In this document: piece by piece, positions 25,496 to 33,542 of the stretch | Numbering within the stretch: position 1 is the stretch's first letter | Layout: the number at the start of each line of letters is the position of its first letter | NCBI GenBank assembly: GCA_016202485.1 | Contig: JACQOP010000138.1 | Location: 1-43,544, forward strand | DNA length: 43,544 bases | Direction of reading: 5' to 3' | Source: Chloroflexota bacterium | GTDB lineage: Bacteria > Chloroflexota > Dehalococcoidia > Lucifugimonadales > JACPCL1 | Translations under genes and position numbers: made by a program | The notes under the pieces: generated by a model | What the model saw: only the letters and a program-made list of their open reading frames with translations | What the model was told of the DNA's origin: nothing | Database searches by the model: none

Positions 25496-26626
25496 ATGAC
25501 GTCTTTTCGCCTGCGCTGCATTGAATGCGCTGCTCTCCATGACGCCGGTGTACGCACCCTTGCCTGCCGCCGGTGCGGGTCGCCTCTAGAGGTGCTGTAT
25601 GAGGGTGATGGCCCTTCCTATGACGCCGATTTCTCTGGCATATGGGGCCTGGGCGCGCTCCTGCCCATAGGCGACCGGTCTTGCATCGTTTCCCTGGGGG
25701 AAGGCAATACCCCAGTGGTGCGCCTGGAAGGGGTGGGGCGGGGGCTGGGCCTGGTTAGCCTTTGGGGGAAGCTAGAGTACCAGGCTCCCACCGGTTCTTT
25801 CAAAGACCGGGGCACGACGGTGCTGATGTCGGCGCTGAAGGAGGCGGGGGTCAGGGAGATCGTGGAGGACTCCTCTGGCAATGCGGGGGCGTCCCTAGCG
25901 GCCTACGCCGCCCGGGCGGGCGTGGTCGCCCATATTTTTGCTCCCTCCTCGGCGCCGGTAGCAAAGCTCCAGCAGATACAGGTGTATGGGGCGAAGGTGC
26001 ATACGGTGGACGGCTCCCGGGAGGCCGCTACTGAGGCAGCCAAGGAGTTTGCTGAAGAGCGGGGATTGGTCTATGCGTCTCACAACCTCAGCTCGTATGT
26101 CGCTGAGGGCACCAAGACCTTCGCCTACGAGATAGCCCAGCAGATGGCGGGCCGTATGCCCCGGCACGTGGTCATCCCGGTAGGCAACGGCTCCCTGCTC
26201 ATTGGGGCGTGGAAGGGGTTTTTGGAGCTGCGGGCCAAGGGGGTCATCGCCGAGATGCCACACCTCTACGGCGTGCAGGCAGAGGTGGTGCAGCCCATCG
26301 CTGCGGCCTACGAGGGCCGGGAGTGGCGTCCCCAGGAAGGCTCTCGTACCATTGCCGGGGGTATTTCTGTGGGCCAGCCGCCGCGCCTGCGCCAGGCCCT
26401 GCGGGCTATGCAAGAGACGGGGGGACGTCCTGTGGCGGTAACGGACGAGGCGATCCTGCGGTGGCAACTGGCCCTGGCGCGCCAGGAGGGCATCTACGCC
26501 GAGCCGACCTCGGCGGCGGCCTTTGCGGGACTGGAGGCCCTGGTGAGCCTGGGCTTCATTGCGGCTGGGGATACGGTGCTGGCGCCGGTAACGGGCATTG
26601 GCCTGAAGGATGCGCCGCCGGTGTAG
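25496..26626 (+). CDS. thrC: Threonine synthase (short form with N-terminal zinc ribbon)
   Basis: CIEC...CRRC ribbon, PLP-lysine motif TGSFKDRG and SSGNAGAS. Confidence 0.85.
   Translation: MTSFRLRCIECAALHDAGVRTLACRRCGSPLEVLYEGDGPSYDADFSGIWGLGALLPIGDRSCIVSLGEGNTPVVRLEGVGRGLGLVSLWGKLEYQAPTGSFKDRGTTVLMSALKEAGVREIVEDSSGNAGASLAAYAARAGVVAHIFAPSSAPVAKLQQIQVYGAKVHTVDGSREAATEAAKEFAEERGLVYASHNLSSYVAEGTKTFAYEIAQQMAGRMPRHVVIPVGNGSLLIGAWKGFLELRAKGVIAEMPHLYGVQAEVVQPIAAAYEGREWRPQEGSRTIAGGISVGQPPRLRQALRAMQETGGRPVAVTDEAILRWQLALARQEGIYAEPTSAAAFAGLEALVSLGFIAAGDTVLAPVTGIGLKDAPPV
26579..26624 (+). repeat. 46-bp direct repeat, copy 1 (thrC 3' end)
   Basis: ctggcgccggtaacgggcattggcctgaaggaTgcgccgccggtgt is identical to 29914..29959 except for one base. 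Confidence 0.95.
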
Positions 26627-26661
26627 TCGCAAACTACTTCAGAGAATTGTGTCGCAGGGTA

Positions 26662-26692
26662 TTGAGCTTCTAGTTACTGGAAGGTCTATTGT
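26662..26692 (+). promoter_or_regulatory. MerR-family-type promoter/operator (19-bp spacer)
   Basis: TTGAGC-19 nt-TATTGT. The imperfect dyad AGCTTCT-N7-GGAAGGT spans the -35 element and spacer, in the same register as CueR/MerR-type operators. Confidence 0.5.
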
Positions 26693-26797
26693 TTGTCTGC
26701 AACGTTGCACATCACTGGATGCAAGGAGAATGGGCCATGAAGGGGATCAGCAAGAAGAAGTGCCCGCTGTGTGGAGCCTAGGGCTACGCCCTTGATC

Positions 26798-26833
26798 CTT
26801 TCCCTTCTGCCCAGGCCTGGGCAGAAGGGAAAG
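26798..26833. repeat. Perfect 36-bp palindrome
   Basis: ctttcccttctgcccagg|cctgggcagaagggaaag has 18-bp arms, no loop and no following T-tract. Confidence 0.9.
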
Positions 26834-26912
26834 CCGGGATGAGGGTGGGGTACAGGCCTTACAGTTTGGAGAAGGCCGATTGTCGTCTTAGCAAGTATTC
26901 TTGGGGGTGATT

Positions 26913-27350
26913 ATGCGTATAGGAGTGCTGGCACGCGTTACGGGCATACTTGCCAGGACTATCCGCTTCTACGAGGCAGAGGGTTTGCTGGCTGAACCAA
27001 GGCGAACTGAGGGAGACTACCGGGACTATGATGCGGCGGCTGTGGAGCGGCTGGTGTTTATCAAGAAGGCCCGCCTATTGGGCCTGTCGTTGAAGGAGGT
27101 AGGGAGCGTCCTTCAGCTTCATGAACGGCAGGAACCGACGTGTGTACACGTCCGAGCATTGCTGGATGACAAACTATCCCAGGTGGAAAGGGCTATCCAG
27201 GAACTGCTGGCCTTCCGTGAGGAGCTGGTGCGGCTGAAGGCCCGGGCGGGCACGTTAGAGGACTGCTGCCCGACGGGAGGAAGCGTGTGCGGGATCATTG
27301 AAGGGTGGGAAACAGTGCGAGTGGTCACAGCAGGAGGACTGCATGAGTAA
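26913..27350 (+). CDS. merR: MerR-family heavy-metal-responsive transcriptional regulator
   Basis: N-terminal [27 protein letters not shown]. There is a Cys at the start of the dimerisation helix (EPTCVHV) plus a C-terminal CCPTGGSVC. The stop overlaps the merA start (ATGAGTAA). Confidence 0.85.
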
Positions 27351-28752
27351 CTATGACCTGGTCATTATTGGGGGGGGGGGTGCAGCGGCCTTTGCCGCAG
27401 CAACCAAGGCAGCAGACCTGGGAAGGAGCGCCCTGATGATCAATCACGGCCTGCCCCTGGGTGGTACCTGCGTCAACGTGGGGTGCATGCCCAGCAAGCA
27501 CCTGCTTGCGGTAGGGGATGAGCTGTGCTACCCCCAGCACCCCCGTTTCCAGGCGCTCCAGGATGGACACCACCCGTCACTGGACTTTGCTGAGGCAGTC
27601 CAAAGCAAGAATGAAATGGTGGCCCGGGCGCGGCAGGCCAACTATGAACGAGTGTTGGAGCACCTGGACGCGGTGGACTACGTGGAGGGGAAGGCCCGGC
27701 TGGCGGGGCCTCGGCAGGTGGAGGCCAACGGGCAGGTGTATGAAGGGGGGAAGGTGCTCATTGCTACCGGTTCTTCAACGAGACAGTTGCCAATTCCAGG
27801 GCTGGACAAGGTGCGGTGGCTGAACAATGTTTCGGCTATGGAGCTAACCCGGCTGCCTGCATCGCTGGTGATCATTGGCGCGGGACCCCTTGGCCTGGAG
27901 TTTGCCCAGATGTTTGCCCACCTTGGAAGCAAGGTAACGGTGCTGGAGGCTATGGAGCAGGTTTTGCCACGGGAGGAGCCGGAGGTGGCCCAGGAGCTGC
28001 AACGGTCCTTGGAAGCGGAAGGCATTGCGTTCCACCTGGGGGTTCGTGTGCAACAGGTTGCGGAACGGAATGGGAGGAAGGTGGTCACCTTCAGCGATGG
28101 AGAGCACATCCATGAAGCCGTTGGAGAGGAGCTGCTGCTGGCTGCGGGGGTCCAGGCCAACACTGCTGGCTTGGACCTAGAAGAAGCTGGGGTCAAGTTG
28201 GAAAGGGGCGGATTTATTGAGGTGGACCAGTTCTATCAAACGGCCAACCCGAGCATCTTTGCTGCGGGGGACTGCATTGGGAAGATGGCGCTGGAGACGG
28301 TAGCTGCAAAAGAGGGGGCTTACGCCGCAGAGAACGCCCTCACCGTGCCGGTGCGGACCGTCAACTATGACCATGTCCCCCATGCGGTGTTCACTAACCC
28401 CCAGGTGGCGTCGGTGGGCCTGACGGAGGAAGAGGAGATGCGGCGGTTCAATAGCTGCGCTTGCCGTACCGTCTACATGGACGCCGTCCCCAAGGCCCTG
28501 GCCATCAACGAAGACCGGGGCGTGTTCAAGATGGTGATTCACCCGCGCAGCTCCAAAATCCTGGGGGTGCACATCGTTGCTCCCCATGCGGCGGACCTTA
28601 TCCACGAGGCTGCCCTGGCGGTGAAGTTTGGCCTCACTGTAGACGACATCATAGATACCGTCCATGTGTTTCCAACCTTCAGCGAGGGAATTAAACGGGC
28701 GGCCCAGGCCTTTACGCGGGATGTTTCACTGATGAGCTGCTGCGTGGAATAG
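27343..28752 (+). CDS. merA: Mercuric reductase, core type without N-terminal HMA domain
   Basis: FAD motif [10 protein letters not shown], redox site [13 protein letters not shown] and a C-terminal vicinal Cys pair (LMSCCVE). Confidence 0.85.
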
Positions 28753-28762
28753 GGTGACCTCT

Positions 28763-28888
28763 ATGCCGGTAGTTATCGGGCTCTTGGTGTGCTGTGTTGT
28801 ACTCACCCTTTTTGTGTTGGGTGCTGCGCTAGGGCTAAGGGGGCCGGACAAGCATAAGGGGAGTGGCCTGATTGAGAAGGGGAGGTGA
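28763..28888 (+). CDS. 41-aa single-TM peptide with vicinal Cys pair (not in ORF track)
   Basis: The translation is MPVVIGLLVCCVVLTLFVLGAALGLRGPDKHKGSGLIEKGR. The ATG lies 11 nt after the merA stop with agggtga upstream. The stop lies within the SD region of the next gene. Confidence 0.45.
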   Translation: MPVVIGLLVCCVVLTLFVLGAALGLRGPDKHKGSGLIEKGR

Positions 28889-28895
28889 GGCGGCA

Positions 28896-29489
28896 ATGAA
28901 GCAAGAGCACATGTGGGTCCCTTTGAGCGCCCTTTTGCTCGTAACCATCGGATGTGGTGGACTGGCACAGCCGGAAGCTACGGCGACGCCTACAACCGCA
29001 ATGAGTATGCCTACAGTCTCTCCAACTCCTATGGACATGCCCATGGACTCGGCCAGCTCACAGGCCGGCCCCCCGCTGGTGATGGGCTATTACGGGGGAC
29101 AGCCTATGCTGTTTATTCATACCGAGGCGTCGGACATGGCTGTAGCAGAGATGCTCACGATGATGATGGGATCCAAGGTCTTAGTAGTCTCTAGCCTTAG
29201 CGGCGTACCTGATGAGTTGCTGGCAGATGTGTTTGTGTTCACAAACGGAGTCAGAGGTGACGGCCCTTTTGGGTATCAGCCCGACGTATTTGACCAGAGC
29301 CCTGATGAGGAAGGGTATACCCCGTTGCGGCGTGTGAATCTAGTTGTGTGGCAGGAAGGAGTGGTGGCAACGGAGTTGCGCTCGGCCAATGCGGTCAACG
29401 CCGCAATTGTGCGAGGGGAGGTCACCGTCACTCGCCCGGGTGTTGTAGTGAATATGCCCATCATTACCTGGCTTGGAGGCCAAAGATAG
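28896..29489 (+). CDS. Met-rich lipoprotein of unknown function
   Basis: SD ggaggtga 7 nt upstream, lipobox LVTIGC, Met-rich linker MSMPTVSPTPMDMPMD, then a globular domain of about 140 aa. Confidence 0.7.
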   Translation: MKQEHMWVPLSALLLVTIGCGGLAQPEATATPTTAMSMPTVSPTPMDMPMDSASSQAGPPLVMGYYGGQPMLFIHTEASDMAVAEMLTMMMGSKVLVVSSLSGVPDELLADVFVFTNGVRGDGPFGYQPDVFDQSPDEEGYTPLRRVNLVVWQEGVVATELRSANAVNAAIVRGEVTVTRPGVVVNMPIITWLGGQR

Positions 29490-29597
29490 CGAGCGACCAT
29501 CAACGCTCAATGCAGAAGGTGTGCTATGAGACGGTTGCTACACCTAGAGAACCTGTTTTTGCCCGTGCAGGGGTTGCTGCCCCTGCCGTGGTGATGA

Positions 29598-29855
29598 GTG
29601 GTCCCTGGCTTGCTCGGCCTCCTGGGCGCTAGCGGGGCTGGGCTTGCTCTGGCGCCCGCGTTGCGGGTGCTGACCTATCCATTGCTGGCCCTGACGGTGC
29701 TGACCCTGGGCCGGGGCTGGTATCTGCAGCTCCGTCATAAAGCTGCCACGCCCTGGCGTATGCGGTCGCGCTGGATATTGCTTACGTCCACTGCGCTGGG
29801 TGTGGGACTGTGGGCCTTGCGGTTTGCGGGATTGCTTGGTGCGAGGCCCTTTTGA
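29598..29855 (+). CDS. Small hydrophobic protein (about 3 TM, no Cys)
   Basis: GTG start immediately after tandem TGA TGA. It is the last ORF of the mer cassette. Function unknown. Confidence 0.4.
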   Translation: MVPGLLGLLGASGAGLALAPALRVLTYPLLALTVLTLGRGWYLQLRHKAATPWRMRSRWILLTSTALGVGLWALRFAGLLGARPF

Positions 29856-29862
29856 GAGGTGG

Positions 29863-29961
29863 GGGCTGGAGACCCTTGTGTGCCGTAGCATTATTCCGCT
29901 GGGGGACACGATCCTGGCGCCGGTAACGGGCATTGGCCTGAAGGACGCGCCGCCGGTGTGA
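29863..29961 (+). pseudogene. Orphan 3' fragment of a thrC-like gene
   Basis: It translates to GLETLVCRSIIPLGDTILAPVTGIGLKDAPPV*. The intact thrC ends GLEALVSLGFIAAGDTVLAPVTGIGLKDAPPV*. No upstream thrC body is present. Confidence 0.75.
29914..29959 (+). repeat. 46-bp direct repeat, copy 2
   Basis: See 26579..26624. It matches at 45 of 46 positions. Confidence 0.95.
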
Positions 29962-29977
29962 GGCAGTCCAGTGAGGG

Positions 29978-30310
29978 CTACCGGGTCGCGGTTGGTTCCT
30001 TGGGCCAGGGCTTTTGCTCGGGGTCAAGGACGAGGTGATATTTCATTTGCTCCTGTTTGCCGCTCTTGAAGGTAACGGTGATACCTATGGTGAACTCCCC
30101 CCACCCAGAGGTCTCCAAGGCAAACTTGTCTTCGCTGCTGGTACGCACCTGGTACGGCTCTGGAAAGGACGAATGCAAGAAATACTCCACTTGCTGGATC
30201 TCTTGCAGCCGTACTGTCGGCTCGTTGACAAAGACGCGCCAGCGGTAATATTGGCGGCCGCTGACGGTGACACCTAAATCCTTGGAGTAGTTGTTGAATT
30301 GTATGGCCAT
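29978..30310 (-). CDS. Prokaryotic YEATS (pYEATS)-like domain protein
   Basis: YYRWRVFVNEP...LQEIQQVEYFLHSSFPEPYQVR...KFALETSGWGEFTIGITVTFKSG fits the remembered pYEATS pattern (W.W.v, VeY.LHptFp, F.l...gWG.F.i). SD aggtgagg precedes ATG 30310. Confidence 0.65.
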   Translation of the reverse strand: MAIQFNNYSKDLGVTVSGRQYYRWRVFVNEPTVRLQEIQQVEYFLHSSFPEPYQVRTSSEDKFALETSGWGEFTIGITVTFKSGKQEQMKYHLVLDPEQKPWPKEPTATR

Positions 30311-30322
30311 GAGTCGCCTCAC

Positions 30323-30811
30323 CTAATCTGGGACATGAATGGCATCCCTTATCGTAGCCAGTGGAGTGAACCAGCGGACCTGCCACCGGTCGCCGTTCTT
30401 TTCCTTGAGCCTTAACTGGATATAGTCCGTAGGGCTGACGCTAGGCAGTAGGATACACTGCCATCCGCCCGGCCCCAGCGTAGGGAGCAGCTTGCCACGC
30501 TCCTTAGTCTGATTACTGTTCCCTTCCTTCAGTTCGTAGTTGCATTCCTCTGAGTCCAGGTCTACGGTTCCGTTTTCTCTGTCAGGAAAGCGCAAAGTGA
30601 CTGAGACCTGGCCTTTGGGGCGAATGGAGTCCCGGAAGGCAAAGATAACCGCGCCCAGAATCTCCACAATGCCTGCACCAATGAGCCATCGGAAGTAGTC
30701 AGGATCAGCCCTTGGGAAGAGTCCAAGTCCTACCAGGATTGCCGCAAGAAAGGTGCCCAGCAGGATGATTAGGAATGCGGCGAGTATTGCGTACCGCTCT
30801 CTCAGAGTCAC
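30323..30811 (-). CDS. 2-TM membrane protein with a soluble C-terminal domain of about 100 aa
   Basis: GTG start with SD gaggtga 6 nt upstream. The stop lies 12 nt before the pYEATS-like ATG. The gene looks more AT-rich by eye than its flanks. Confidence 0.65.
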   Translation of the reverse strand: MTLRERYAILAAFLIILLGTFLAAILVGLGLFPRADPDYFRWLIGAGIVEILGAVIFAFRDSIRPKGQVSVTLRFPDRENGTVDLDSEECNYELKEGNSNQTKERGKLLPTLGPGGWQCILLPSVSPTDYIQLRLKEKNGDRWQVRWFTPLATIRDAIHVPD

Positions 30812-30878
30812 GTTGTGTCACCTCATTGTAGCATCTGGCAGAAGGAACACCGCAACCGGGGAAGCGCATCCTCAGCTC

Positions 30879-32327
30879 CTACTCCGTCAGGCGCTGGCCG
30901 TAGTCTATGTAGGCGGTGCTGCCCACCTGGGACAGGGCGATCTCCTGGCGGTAGACACCGCCGTGAAAGGGGCGTTCGGCGCTATGGACTTCCCGCTCCC
31001 AGTGCACCTCTTCCGGCGCCGGCCCGTCCTTGAGGGCCTCCAGCAAGGGACGGCCGTCCAGGGGGACGCCAGGGTCAAGGCCCAGGAGATGTAGGATGGT
31101 GGGGGTGAGGTCCACGTTGCCGCTTGGAACTCTTGTGACCAGGCCCCGTTTAAAGTGTGGGCCGCGGGCAAAGAGGACGTTGTTCATTTCGTGCTTGCTC
31201 ATTCCGCCGTGCTGGCCACGGCCTGGGGCCGCGCCGGTGGCGTAGGAGATGCCCAGGAAGCCGTTCTCGTTGGGGCGGGAGTCCCAGCGGAAAGACATGG
31301 CCAGGTCCGGGGCGCGTGTGCCCTCGTTGCCGACGACATGAGCGGGCAGGGTCCCTGGGATGCCGGCGGCAGCGTCGGAGGCGGTGACTGCGCCGCACCA
31401 GGGCTGTGCCATCAGCCAGACGGTGAGCTTGTCAGTTACGCCAGCATCTTTATTGTGGGCATAGAAGAGGACGGAGCCGCCGTTGTGGGCGGCGTAGACG
31501 CCGCCGGGCCGGTCGCCCTCGGGGAACCCCGCTTCCTTGATGACTTCGCCTACGTTGACCACGCCCCCAATAGTGGCGTAGCCGTGGTCGGAAATGACCA
31601 GGATATCGGTGTCTTCGGCGCGGCCCATGCGCTCCAGCCAGCCCAGGATTTCTCCGAACTGCTGGTCTGCGTCATGGATGGCGCCATTGGAGACCGCATG
31701 GCCGACGCCGTGCCGGTGGTGGGAGTGGTCCGGCTCGGAGAACCAGATGAGGCTGACGGCGGGATCCCGCTCTGGCTGAACGTATTCGGTCAAGACCCGT
31801 TTGCCATAGACCAGGCGCTCAGTATTGGGGACGCTATCCTCGGGCCAGGGGCCGAAGCGTCCGATAATCTGGTCGTAGAGGCTGTAGGGTAGGGTGAAGT
31901 CTGGGTGGATGGTTGCCCCGCCGGAACGGTGGGCGTTGGGGTTGTGCATATAGGCGTTGCCGGAGGTGCCGGTACCCACTGCGATGTACTCCTGCCCGTA
32001 GCGATGGAGGATATCGGCGAGGGTAGGGGCTAGAAGCACCTCCCCCAGCTTGGCAGCCACCTCTTTGAGGGTTGGCTCAAGGACCGAGAAGGGGCGGTAG
32101 GGGTCAAAGTCCCGCATGACGACGGAGTTGGCGGCAATGCCGTGGTTGCCCGGGTAGCGGCCGGTCACCATGCTGGTCCCGTTAATACGGGTGACGCTGG
32201 GGAAGACGCAGTGGTGAGCGGCGAAGGTGACGCCCTCCTGTGCCAGCTTGTAGAGGTTGGGCATGACCTGTGGCGTCACGTTGGCAGGCTGGAGGCCGTC
32301 AAATACCGCAATAAATACACGTGTCAT
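30879..32327 (-). CDS. Alkaline-phosphatase-superfamily nucleotide pyrophosphatase/phosphodiesterase (NPP-type)
   Basis: AVFDGLQP, nucleophile block FPSVTRINGTSMVTGRYPGNHGI and VISDHGY. Confidence 0.85.
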   Translation of the reverse strand: MTRVFIAVFDGLQPANVTPQVMPNLYKLAQEGVTFAAHHCVFPSVTRINGTSMVTGRYPGNHGIAANSVVMRDFDPYRPFSVLEPTLKEVAAKLGEVLLAPTLADILHRYGQEYIAVGTGTSGNAYMHNPNAHRSGGATIHPDFTLPYSLYDQIIGRFGPWPEDSVPNTERLVYGKRVLTEYVQPERDPAVSLIWFSEPDHSHHRHGVGHAVSNGAIHDADQQFGEILGWLERMGRAEDTDILVISDHGYATIGGVVNVGEVIKEAGFPEGDRPGGVYAAHNGGSVLFYAHNKDAGVTDKLTVWLMAQPWCGAVTASDAAAGIPGTLPAHVVGNEGTRAPDLAMSFRWDSRPNENGFLGISYATGAAPGRGQHGGMSKHEMNNVLFARGPHFKRGLVTRVPSGNVDLTPTILHLLGLDPGVPLDGRPLLEALKDGPAPEEVHWEREVHSAERPFHGGVYRQEIALSQVGSTAYIDYGQRLTE

Positions 32328-32467
32328 GGGGCACCTCCGCGCAAGATGGCGTGATTCTATCACACTTGCAGGGGGTCTACCCGTGAACGCCGAGCCGAAT
32401 GTAGGAGCAGCTACTCATAGGATAACCCATGCAGGTGGCTGCCCCTGAATACGCTTGGCCCCCTAAG

Positions 32468-32962
32468 CTATACCTTTGTGTTTTTGCCCAGGTCCCACCC
32501 GCCGGCCACAGCCGAGCCCAAAGTCCCATCGGAGCTTTGTGGGGAGTACTTCCACTCAATTTTGCTGAAGTTGAAGCTGATTTCCTCCAGAGGTAACGTC
32601 TCTCCTCCCTTGGCGTTTCCTCCTGGCCTGACGGAGGAGATGATGACGTCGGTCATCTTGTACTCCAGGTATTGCTGCTGGGCCCCATCGGTCTTCTGGA
32701 ACTGTATGGTGACCTCTGGGATGTGTTCCCCGCTGGCGCAGGCCAGCATCAGGAGGGGAGTGGACTTGTCCAGGGATTTCACCACCGTGAAGTTGCTGAA
32801 ACTAGCCCGCTCGGCAGTCCCCGCCGCCGAGGATGAGACGGCGCTGGAAGGCTGGGTAACCCCAAAGCTGTAGGACAGGATATTTATCCAGTCTTTGTGC
32901 TTGAGTTGGTCCGTGCTTTCGCCGGGAATGGAGCCTATCTTGATAAATGCATCAAAGGCCAT
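32468..32962 (-). CDS. hcp: Hcp (T6SS tube protein TssD family)
   Basis: MAFDAFIKIGSIPGES..., DKSTPLLMLACASGEHIP and ISFNFSKIEWKY align by eye along the whole length with P. aeruginosa Hcp1 (MAVDMFIKIGDVKGES, DKSTPNLMMACSSGKHYP). SD aggagg. Confidence 0.9.
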   Translation of the reverse strand: MAFDAFIKIGSIPGESTDQLKHKDWINILSYSFGVTQPSSAVSSSAAGTAERASFSNFTVVKSLDKSTPLLMLACASGEHIPEVTIQFQKTDGAQQQYLEYKMTDVIISSVRPGGNAKGGETLPLEEISFNFSKIEWKYSPQSSDGTLGSAVAGGWDLGKNTKV

Positions 32963-33542
32963 TTTTAACCTCCTGTGTTGGAACGTCTGCTGGTGAGAAT
33001 ACCAGGTCAAAGGTGAACTCCGCTGTGCCGTCCCCGCCTAACTCCTGGGGACGTTGCTTAGCCAGATAGGTGCCCTTAGCGCCGGCGTAGCGGCCAGTCC
33101 CGGCGACCACCGTGTAGAGGTCATGCCCGGTTCTGGATGCCCTGCTTGTGCCCATGCCGAGAAGGGCGCCGTCCAGCAGGTTAAAGGTGTGGACCTCTAT
33201 CCTGGTGGCGGCAAAGGGGGTGGGGCCAAAGGGGGAGCCTATGGACAGGCAGTTGGAATAAAACTCGCCCAGCTTTAGGTCTTTTGACTCGTTGAGTAGT
33301 TCACCATACATCACCATCTGGTCTCCCATGACTGGCAACTCTCCCTGCTTGTGGTCCTGGGAGTAGAGGTGCCAGTGACGGCCATTCAGCCTCAGAGGGG
33401 TCTTAGACAGCAACGAGGGGGGGCCGATAACAGCGGCGCCGACACCGGAGCTCTTAAAGGCTACGGCGGCCCCTGCGGCTGCCAGGAGAATAGCCGCCCG
33501 TTTCAAGAAACTGCGCCTGGGGGCTTTTGCTGCATCTCTCAT
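32952..33542 (-). CDS. Tat-exported protein, dirigent/allene-oxide-cyclase-barrel-like
   Basis: PRRSFLKRAAILLAAAGAAVA Tat signal and a VVAGTGRYAGAKGT motif. It overlaps the hcp start by 11 nt. Confidence 0.65.
   Translation of the reverse strand: MRDAAKAPRRSFLKRAAILLAAAGAAVAFKSSGVGAAVIGPPSLLSKTPLRLNGRHWHLYSQDHKQGELPVMGDQMVMYGELLNESKDLKLGEFYSNCLSIGSPFGPTPFAATRIEVHTFNLLDGALLGMGTSRASRTGHDLYTVVAGTGRYAGAKGTYLAKQRPQELGGDGTAEFTFDLVFSPADVPTQEVKNGL

Follow-up and report, generated by a model that had tools for sequence, protein, structure and literature searches.

Cap15 of CBASS and OptE of Panoptes are S-2TM-beta effectors, in which two N-terminal transmembrane (TM) helices precede a small soluble beta-rich domain (about 100 aa) through which the activating signal is received, and they have a membrane-disruption role (PMC12657218). 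The YEATS domain is represented in eukaryotes by AF9, ENL, GAS41, Yaf9, and TAF14, and its prokaryotic form, pYEATS, is already catalogued in Pfam and exists as an NCBI annotation label ("pYEATS domain-containing protein"). We analyzed a gene pair that bears on both, located in a 43,544-nt stretch of contig JACQOP010000138.1 from a Chloroflexota bacterium (GCA_016202485.1); the whole stretch is referred to as the window. The first gene, geneA (30323..30811, minus strand), is an open reading frame (ORF) of 162 aa with a GTG start, encoding a two-TM hairpin and a beta-rich domain predicted to be cytoplasmic, and the second, geneB (29978..30310, minus strand), is an ORF of 110 aa with an ATG start, encoding a single-domain pYEATS protein. 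The results show that geneA and geneB are two halves of one self-contained module, because their families are adjacent or fused across many phyla, and that the invariant core of this module is the beta domain, placed first, plus pYEATS, either as adjacent genes or as one polypeptide.

The pYEATS gene comes directly after each of the three closest geneA homologues (3/3), and a geneA homologue lies upstream of each of the closest pYEATS homologues, in two different genomic contexts. A scan of 185,579 representative species with a pYEATS pattern recovered 28 loci, and the beta domain is present in 8/8 of the genome loci whose pYEATS is at least 39% identical to geneB. Six of these are fused (Nitrospira defluvii, Thermodesulfobacteriota, delta-proteobacterial metagenome-assembled genomes, and Acidobacteriota) and two, both from Dehalococcoidia, are split; a ninth, more distant genome locus from Thiomicrorhabdus (~30% identity) is also split. 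The 80 metagenome loci from the Joint Genome Institute comprise 25 fused loci, 22 split loci, 24 without the beta domain, and 8 that are not assessable, and wherever pYEATS is at least 40% identical to geneB the beta domain is present (44/44 assessable loci). The pairing was found again in 70 of the related loci retrieved, as expected if the two genes co-occur outside the window, and it is not a matter of chance.

These surveys used the pYEATS alignment (A4) and are therefore biased to the pYEATS side, and reciprocity was checked from members of the beta family. A pYEATS gene follows each of three further, divergent members (P0040, P0061, and P0083), and 7/10 of the long geneA-family members scanned are single polypeptides with the order 2TM-beta-linker-pYEATS. 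The sole exception found to the succession of beta domain and pYEATS is a 258-aa beta-family member (L123 944-1720) with its own C-terminal extension, which lies beside an rve transposase and has no downstream pYEATS. In a rough neighbor-joining tree, nearly all fused forms fall in one clade, with at least two transitions between fused and split forms. The original prediction had described the pYEATS protein as stand-alone, which holds in that geneB is a separate gene here, but elsewhere 2TM-beta-pYEATS is one chain, of which geneB is the split version. We also observed that several metagenome loci scored as lacking the beta domain have an upstream two-TM protein that matches the beta profile weakly. 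Two-TM proteins of 169-206 aa whose C-termini match the beta-domain profile with E values of 0.04-7 lie 5' of small stand-alone pYEATS genes of more distant branches (L022 5309-5929, L113 4273-4893, and L120 1323-1832). Judged from these alignments, such loci are probably divergent versions of the pair, and the pairing is probably wider than the hidden Markov model shows.

The geneB product matches the pYEATS family PF20305 with an E value of 1.7e-21 and 76.3 bits (gathering cutoff 26.9) and the eukaryotic YEATS family PF03366 with an E value of 1.1e-14 and 54.6 bits (cutoff 22), and passing both Pfam cutoffs is a first likeness to the eukaryotic proteins. A sequence search of the PDB returned TAF14b as the best match (E 2.6e-9), and AF9, ENL, GAS41, and Yaf9 were also matched. 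The AlphaFold2 model of geneB has a predicted local distance difference test score (pLDDT) of 91.3 and a predicted template modeling score (pTM) of 0.80, and the best 50 Foldseek matches of this model in the PDB are all YEATS domains (prob 1.00, TMq 0.62-0.71, root mean square deviation ~2.3-3 A). The fold predicted by AlphaFold2 and Foldseek is an immunoglobulin-like beta-sandwich that superposes on solved YEATS domains.

The pocket motifs of the eukaryotic domains, LH-S-F and G-W-G-x-F, are also kept in geneB. The acyl-lysine cage of AF9, which we take to be established as F28, H56, S58, F59, Y78, and F81, was compared with geneB in HMMER alignments with AF9 and TAF14b. H46, S48, and F49 of the LHSSF motif (aa 45-49; 30164..30178, minus strand) align with AF9 H56, S58, and F59, and W70 and F73 of the SGWGEF motif (aa 68-73; 30092..30109, minus strand) align with AF9 Y78 and F81. 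AF9 F28 has no clear equivalent in geneB, for which the invariant Y21 is a possible substitute. Within the clade, H46, F49, G69, W70, G71, and F73 are invariant, and the position of S48 is occupied by S or T. Taken together, the alignments and the model identify geneB as a genuine YEATS-type domain with a predicted intact reader pocket, and both the Pfam search and the fold prediction bore out its earlier assignment to pYEATS. Unlike the eukaryotic YEATS proteins, geneB is a minimal 110-aa single domain, is bacterial with no chromatin context, and is obligately coupled to a membrane protein.

That membrane protein, the geneA product, has a first TM helix at about aa 8-30 (30722..30790, minus strand) and a second at about aa 42-59 (30635..30688, minus strand) according to hydropathy, corresponding to AlphaFold2 helices at residues 3-28 and 37-63, respectively, with E50 in the middle of the second. 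The beta-rich domain (aa 64-162; 30326..30622, minus strand) is modeled as eight strands within residues 69-160, and the model built with 48 family sequences has a pLDDT of 91 and a pTM of 0.72. An exhaustive profile search defined the geneA family, which comprises 128 representative clusters at 50% identity, with E<=1e-10 for 49 clusters; a word-indexed protein search found only 3 homologues and, with the 48-sequence profile, only 7. In this family, F75, W117, W143, and F148 of the beta domain are near-invariant, the acidic residue in the middle of the second TM helix is D or E in 69% of members (alignment A2), and a K or R follows this helix in 88%. A cysteine pair, with C90 in 79% and C119 in 62% of the family, lies inside the predicted cytoplasmic domain, and this pair and the acidic residue in the helix give sequence-based hints of ion, redox, or metal chemistry. 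The charge distribution of the family fits an N-in/C-in topology, and the fusions of the beta domain to a protein kinase and to pYEATS carry no extra TM segment. An N-in/C-in orientation is supported by these predictions, and since the hairpin would have both ends inside, the beta domain would face the cytoplasm.

No match to geneA was found in the Pfam, PADLOC, NCBIfam, or PHROGs profiles, and its predicted fold has no relative at E<=1e-3 in the PDB (searched with Foldseek) or BFVD. The best, non-significant fold matches are generic beta-sandwiches (fungal lectins and CBM41) with TM-scores of ~0.3. A search of PDB sequences with the geneA profile (E<=10) gave only noise, for example the IL-2 receptor and designed channels. 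The beta domain was also considered as a cryptic degenerate YEATS domain, which was rejected with an hhalign probability of 0.3%. The beta domain of geneA therefore founds a family absent from the four profile and two structure libraries searched. The partner had earlier been read as a two-TM protein with an uncharacterized beta-rich tail, and hydropathy, the AlphaFold2 model, and the lack of a structural relative in these libraries agree with that reading.

The resemblance of geneA to Cap15 and OptE is architectural only. By hydropathy and AlphaFold2, geneA shares with them the two N-terminal TM helices and the soluble beta-rich domain of about 100 aa, and in both cases the proteins are small and encoded in two-gene operons; unlike in those systems, the partner of geneA is a reader domain rather than a nucleotide cyclase. 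No Cap15 or OptE likeness of geneA was detected with Pfam or PADLOC at E<=1 or with the PDB profile at E<=10, and neither protein is among the best 50 Foldseek PDB matches of geneA, none of which is significant. No CD-NTase or mCpol was seen near the module, and no nucleotidyltransferase is among the 25 most frequent neighbor families. By every test run, geneA falls outside the S-2TM-beta family.

The domains on both sides of the core are exchangeable. On the N-side, either the two-TM hairpin or a Ser/Thr kinase is found: in two lineages the beta domain is C-terminal to a Ser/Thr kinase that takes the place of the hairpin, with no TM segment, and these genes are followed by pYEATS-PfkB (420 aa) or pYEATS-HD-CE (L041 2182-4516 and L040 1283-3444). 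The C-side is either empty or occupied by a third beta domain, PfkB, or HD-CE. The third domain, beta-rich and of ~115 aa, is common to the C-termini of fused 2TM-beta-pYEATS proteins of 390-445 aa (L018 5404-6663, L061, L070, L078, L079, and P0117; 35-51% mutual identity) and has no Pfam match, while P0080, P0111, and P0118 have unrelated C-terminal tails. The original prediction had noted that the pair carries no recognizable enzyme, which is true of the window, but relatives have a Ser/Thr kinase, PfkB, or HD-CE attached to the beta-pYEATS core.

More distant pYEATS proteins without the beta domain carry TIR, caspase, papain-like peptidase, metallopeptidase, or TPR domains, or tandem pYEATS. 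Several pYEATS-TIR proteins were seen, so that the TIR fusions named beforehand for other pYEATS proteins were observed directly, and other architectures include caspase-pYEATS, a papain-like peptidase with three pYEATS repeats, and a metallopeptidase with two pYEATS repeats (L093 4107-5303, L101 399-1634, L027 3870-5675, and L031 4933-6213). The fusions of pYEATS to effectors (TIR, caspase, papain-like peptidase or metallopeptidase, and HD-CE) belong to the same pYEATS family as geneB and share the plan of a constant reader with one exchangeable output domain. They differ in lacking the beta domain of geneA and in belonging to more distant branches (<=37% identity), and the output of the geneA-geneB pair, if any, would be a hairpin from a separate gene. 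The coupling of beta domain and pYEATS, which is strict whatever the flanking domains, and the tandem pYEATS arrays of other proteins would suit a pYEATS that serves as a protein-protein adaptor and no longer reads acylation, with the beta domain as its fixed partner and the attached domain setting the role. We consider such an adaptor improbable; it is weakened because the pocket is invariant in the clade and matches the eukaryotic acyl-lysine cage, a conservation unexpected of a degenerate pocket unless the beta domain inserts a side chain there.

In the window, the spacer from the TAG stop of geneA to geneB is exactly 12 nt (GTGAGGCGACTC) and contains a GAGG Shine-Dalgarno sequence (30317..30320, minus strand) 6 nt 5' of the geneB ATG, while a GAGGTG Shine-Dalgarno-like element (30819..30824, minus strand) lies 7 nt 5' of the geneA GTG; both were read from the sequence. 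The GTG start of geneA agrees with aligned homologues starting MTPRERF or MSPRERF, and the ATG start of geneB matches the N-termini of its homologues. The G+C (GC) content of the pair is 0.548, compared with 0.62 in the window as a whole and 0.65-0.68 in its immediate flanks. The two ORFs, their 12-nt gap, the ribosome-binding sites, and the higher AT content of the pair had all been recorded in advance, and each was recovered at the same place.

A gene for a type I phosphodiesterase/nucleotide pyrophosphatase (30879..32363, minus strand; PF01663) lies upstream of the pair, co-linear with it across a 67-nt gap, and its product looks cytoplasmic. This gene stands beside the module only in the window and in the L004 lineage and is absent from that position in other lineages, and it lies outside the conserved module. 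Farther upstream (window 32468-33542) we observed an orphan Hcp (T6SS_HCP, E 5.7e-42) with no type VI cluster visible nearby, adjoined by a protein of 196 aa whose N-terminus is twin-arginine-like (RRSFLK) and which has a weak Dirigent-like match.

On the other side, a variable 3.4-kb segment (26620-29993) begins right after the geneB stop. It encodes MerR (26901-27347) and a MerA-like oxidoreductase ending in Cys-Cys (27298-28752), both located shortly past the geneB 3' end, as well as a DUF7482 protein (28872-29489) and a hydrophobic ORF of 85 aa (29598-29855); merT and merP were not recognized between 26620 and 29993. With the pair directly beside this MerR/MerA segment and more AT-rich than its flanks, it might be taken for cargo of a mercury-resistance insertion or for a chance juxtaposition of two hypothetical ORFs. 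In L004, however, the phosphodiesterase gene (L004 3951-5438), geneA, and geneB form a contiguous 2.4-kb block with 70.7% nucleotide identity to the window, while 3.6 kb of unrelated sequence (AhpC-like, glutaredoxin, and Crp) stand in place of the mer segment; the next syntenic gene past the variable segment in both is a PALP enzyme. Because L004 keeps the pair and replaces the mer segment, the pair lies outside that segment, on the conserved side of the junction. No mer genes accompany the module at the other loci surveyed, and the pair recurs without them in dozens of loci, also as fusions. The L004 synteny and this recurrence refute cargo or chance as an explanation, to which we assign a negligible probability. 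The pair had been placed beside a mer insertion site, and it does border that site without belonging to the mer segment.

The 70 loci share no third gene across lineages, which makes the module autonomous, and in the window the hairpin would tether it to the inner membrane. No NTPase gene is adjacent to the pair, and the neighbors in the window (phosphodiesterase, Hcp, MerR/MerA, and DUF7482) are not conserved in the 70 loci. We tentatively favor, as a reading that falls somewhat short of probable, a self-contained sensor/effector whose pYEATS part recognizes an acylated ligand and governs the membrane hairpin. In this scheme, the hairpin would insert N-in/C-in with the beta domain toward the cytoplasm, and the geneB pYEATS would dock on the beta domain of geneA, rebuilding the single-chain form. 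The aromatic pocket (H46, S48, F49, W70, and F73) would bind an acylated amine, for which protein acyl-lysine is the simplest candidate, and ligand binding could, more speculatively, shift the assembly state of the hairpin so that the inner membrane is perturbed. The module would then be a two-part sensor/effector of the conflict type, similar to abortive infection, in which the hairpin may, by analogy, play the role of the TIR, caspase, or peptidase domains of distant pYEATS proteins, with an architecture resembling that of Cap15 and OptE. The conserved pair or fusion, the conserved pocket, the effector domains on distant pYEATS proteins, and the patchy distribution support this reading. The module is rare and phyletically patchy across distant phyla, rarer than expected of core functions, and its genomic context differs in nearly every lineage.

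Several results weigh against a conflict function. Among 148 nearest neighbors within 2.5 kb, taken from 49 loci, each PADLOC family listed (25 of 78) is matched by one neighbor only, with no background rate for comparison. These single matches include mad3, caspase, PD-T4-2_B, REase_I, and many PtuA/GajA/AriA ATPase models, the last of which may well represent one protein. The Pfam profile of the neighbors is a housekeeping one (PGK, chorismate synthase, NadA, MiaA, Sua5, and epimerases). Neither geneA nor geneB matches PADLOC or PHROGs, and a pattern scan of 2.9 million viral contigs and a search of 50,697 phage records yielded no relative. On 72,556 plasmids geneA has no relative either, and the only match to geneB there is a weak one, to a Stanieria pYEATS protein that is unrelated. 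Cap15, OptE, and known pore formers show no similarity to geneA in sequence or fold, and the kinase, PfkB, and HD-CE variants fit signaling as well as conflict. The GC content of the module is below that of the flanks in 30/32 loci, an offset that may reflect amino-acid composition rather than transfer; as its sign reverses in low-GC hosts, it was rejected as decisive evidence of transfer.

The same neighborhood suits a non-defence regulatory device, in which a membrane-tethered pYEATS recruits or detects cytoplasmic proteins that are acylated, or envelope precursors bearing acetamido groups, the hairpin is just an anchor, and the output of relatives runs through the attached kinase, PfkB, or HD-CE. 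The neighbors are mostly housekeeping or envelope-sugar genes, and in one lineage the module lies inside a nucleotide-sugar/glycosyltransferase cluster; an association with defence islands, phages, or plasmids was not found in the collections searched; the kinase and PfkB variants resemble signaling or metabolism; and the best fold matches of the beta domain, although non-significant, are lectins and a carbohydrate-binding module. The rare and patchy distribution in ever-changing contexts speaks against such a device, as do the TIR, caspase, and peptidase effector domains of more distant pYEATS proteins and the acidic residue in the second TM helix, whose frequency is unusual for a passive anchor. 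We regard this regulatory device as the main rival, only slightly less likely than the sensor/effector.

For the sensor/effector reading, the proposal of a candidate defence system is accordingly sustained only in part: distant pYEATS proteins do carry TIR, caspase, or peptidase domains, but the neighbors are housekeeping genes, no NTPase is conserved, and no copy turned up on phages or plasmids. The suggested look at nearby known defence genes gave the single PADLOC matches described above for the 148 neighbors. The statement that pYEATS had been described in NTP-dependent conflict systems found no backing in the main text and the supplement examined of a 2020 eLife paper, neither of which mentions a YEATS domain.

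In the literature searched, we found no description of a bacterial YEATS domain or of the geneA-geneB pair, the matches being author names and eukaryotic reviews, in line with the earlier statement that such a pair is not known to have been described. What is new here is the unannotated beta domain family and its near-constant coupling to pYEATS, and as far as the libraries searched show, the modular beta-pYEATS family is undescribed. Bacterial lysine acyl "writers" and "erasers" are well studied, and to our knowledge no bacterial lysine acyl "reader" has been experimentally established. Judged from its sequence, geneB is a small stand-alone candidate for a bacterial acyl-lysine reader, possibly the first, and because it is a 110-aa single domain with a predicted intact pocket, the reader question is directly testable with a small soluble protein. 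It is an unlikely but consequential proposition that geneB genuinely reads protein lysine acylation (or another acyl-amide mark) in prokaryotes and that, with the beta domain of geneA, it turns this signal directly into a membrane event via the hairpin; triggers of the acylation signal could be, for example, infection or metabolic stress. If true, bacteria would have their first described "reader-to-membrane" pathway of post-translational modification that is independent of a writer, and it would be the ancestral context of the eukaryotic chromatin YEATS reader. As a defence or stress effector, the module would enlarge the two-TM effector theme by a new type of sensor, and as a regulatory device, it would link protein acylation to the membrane.

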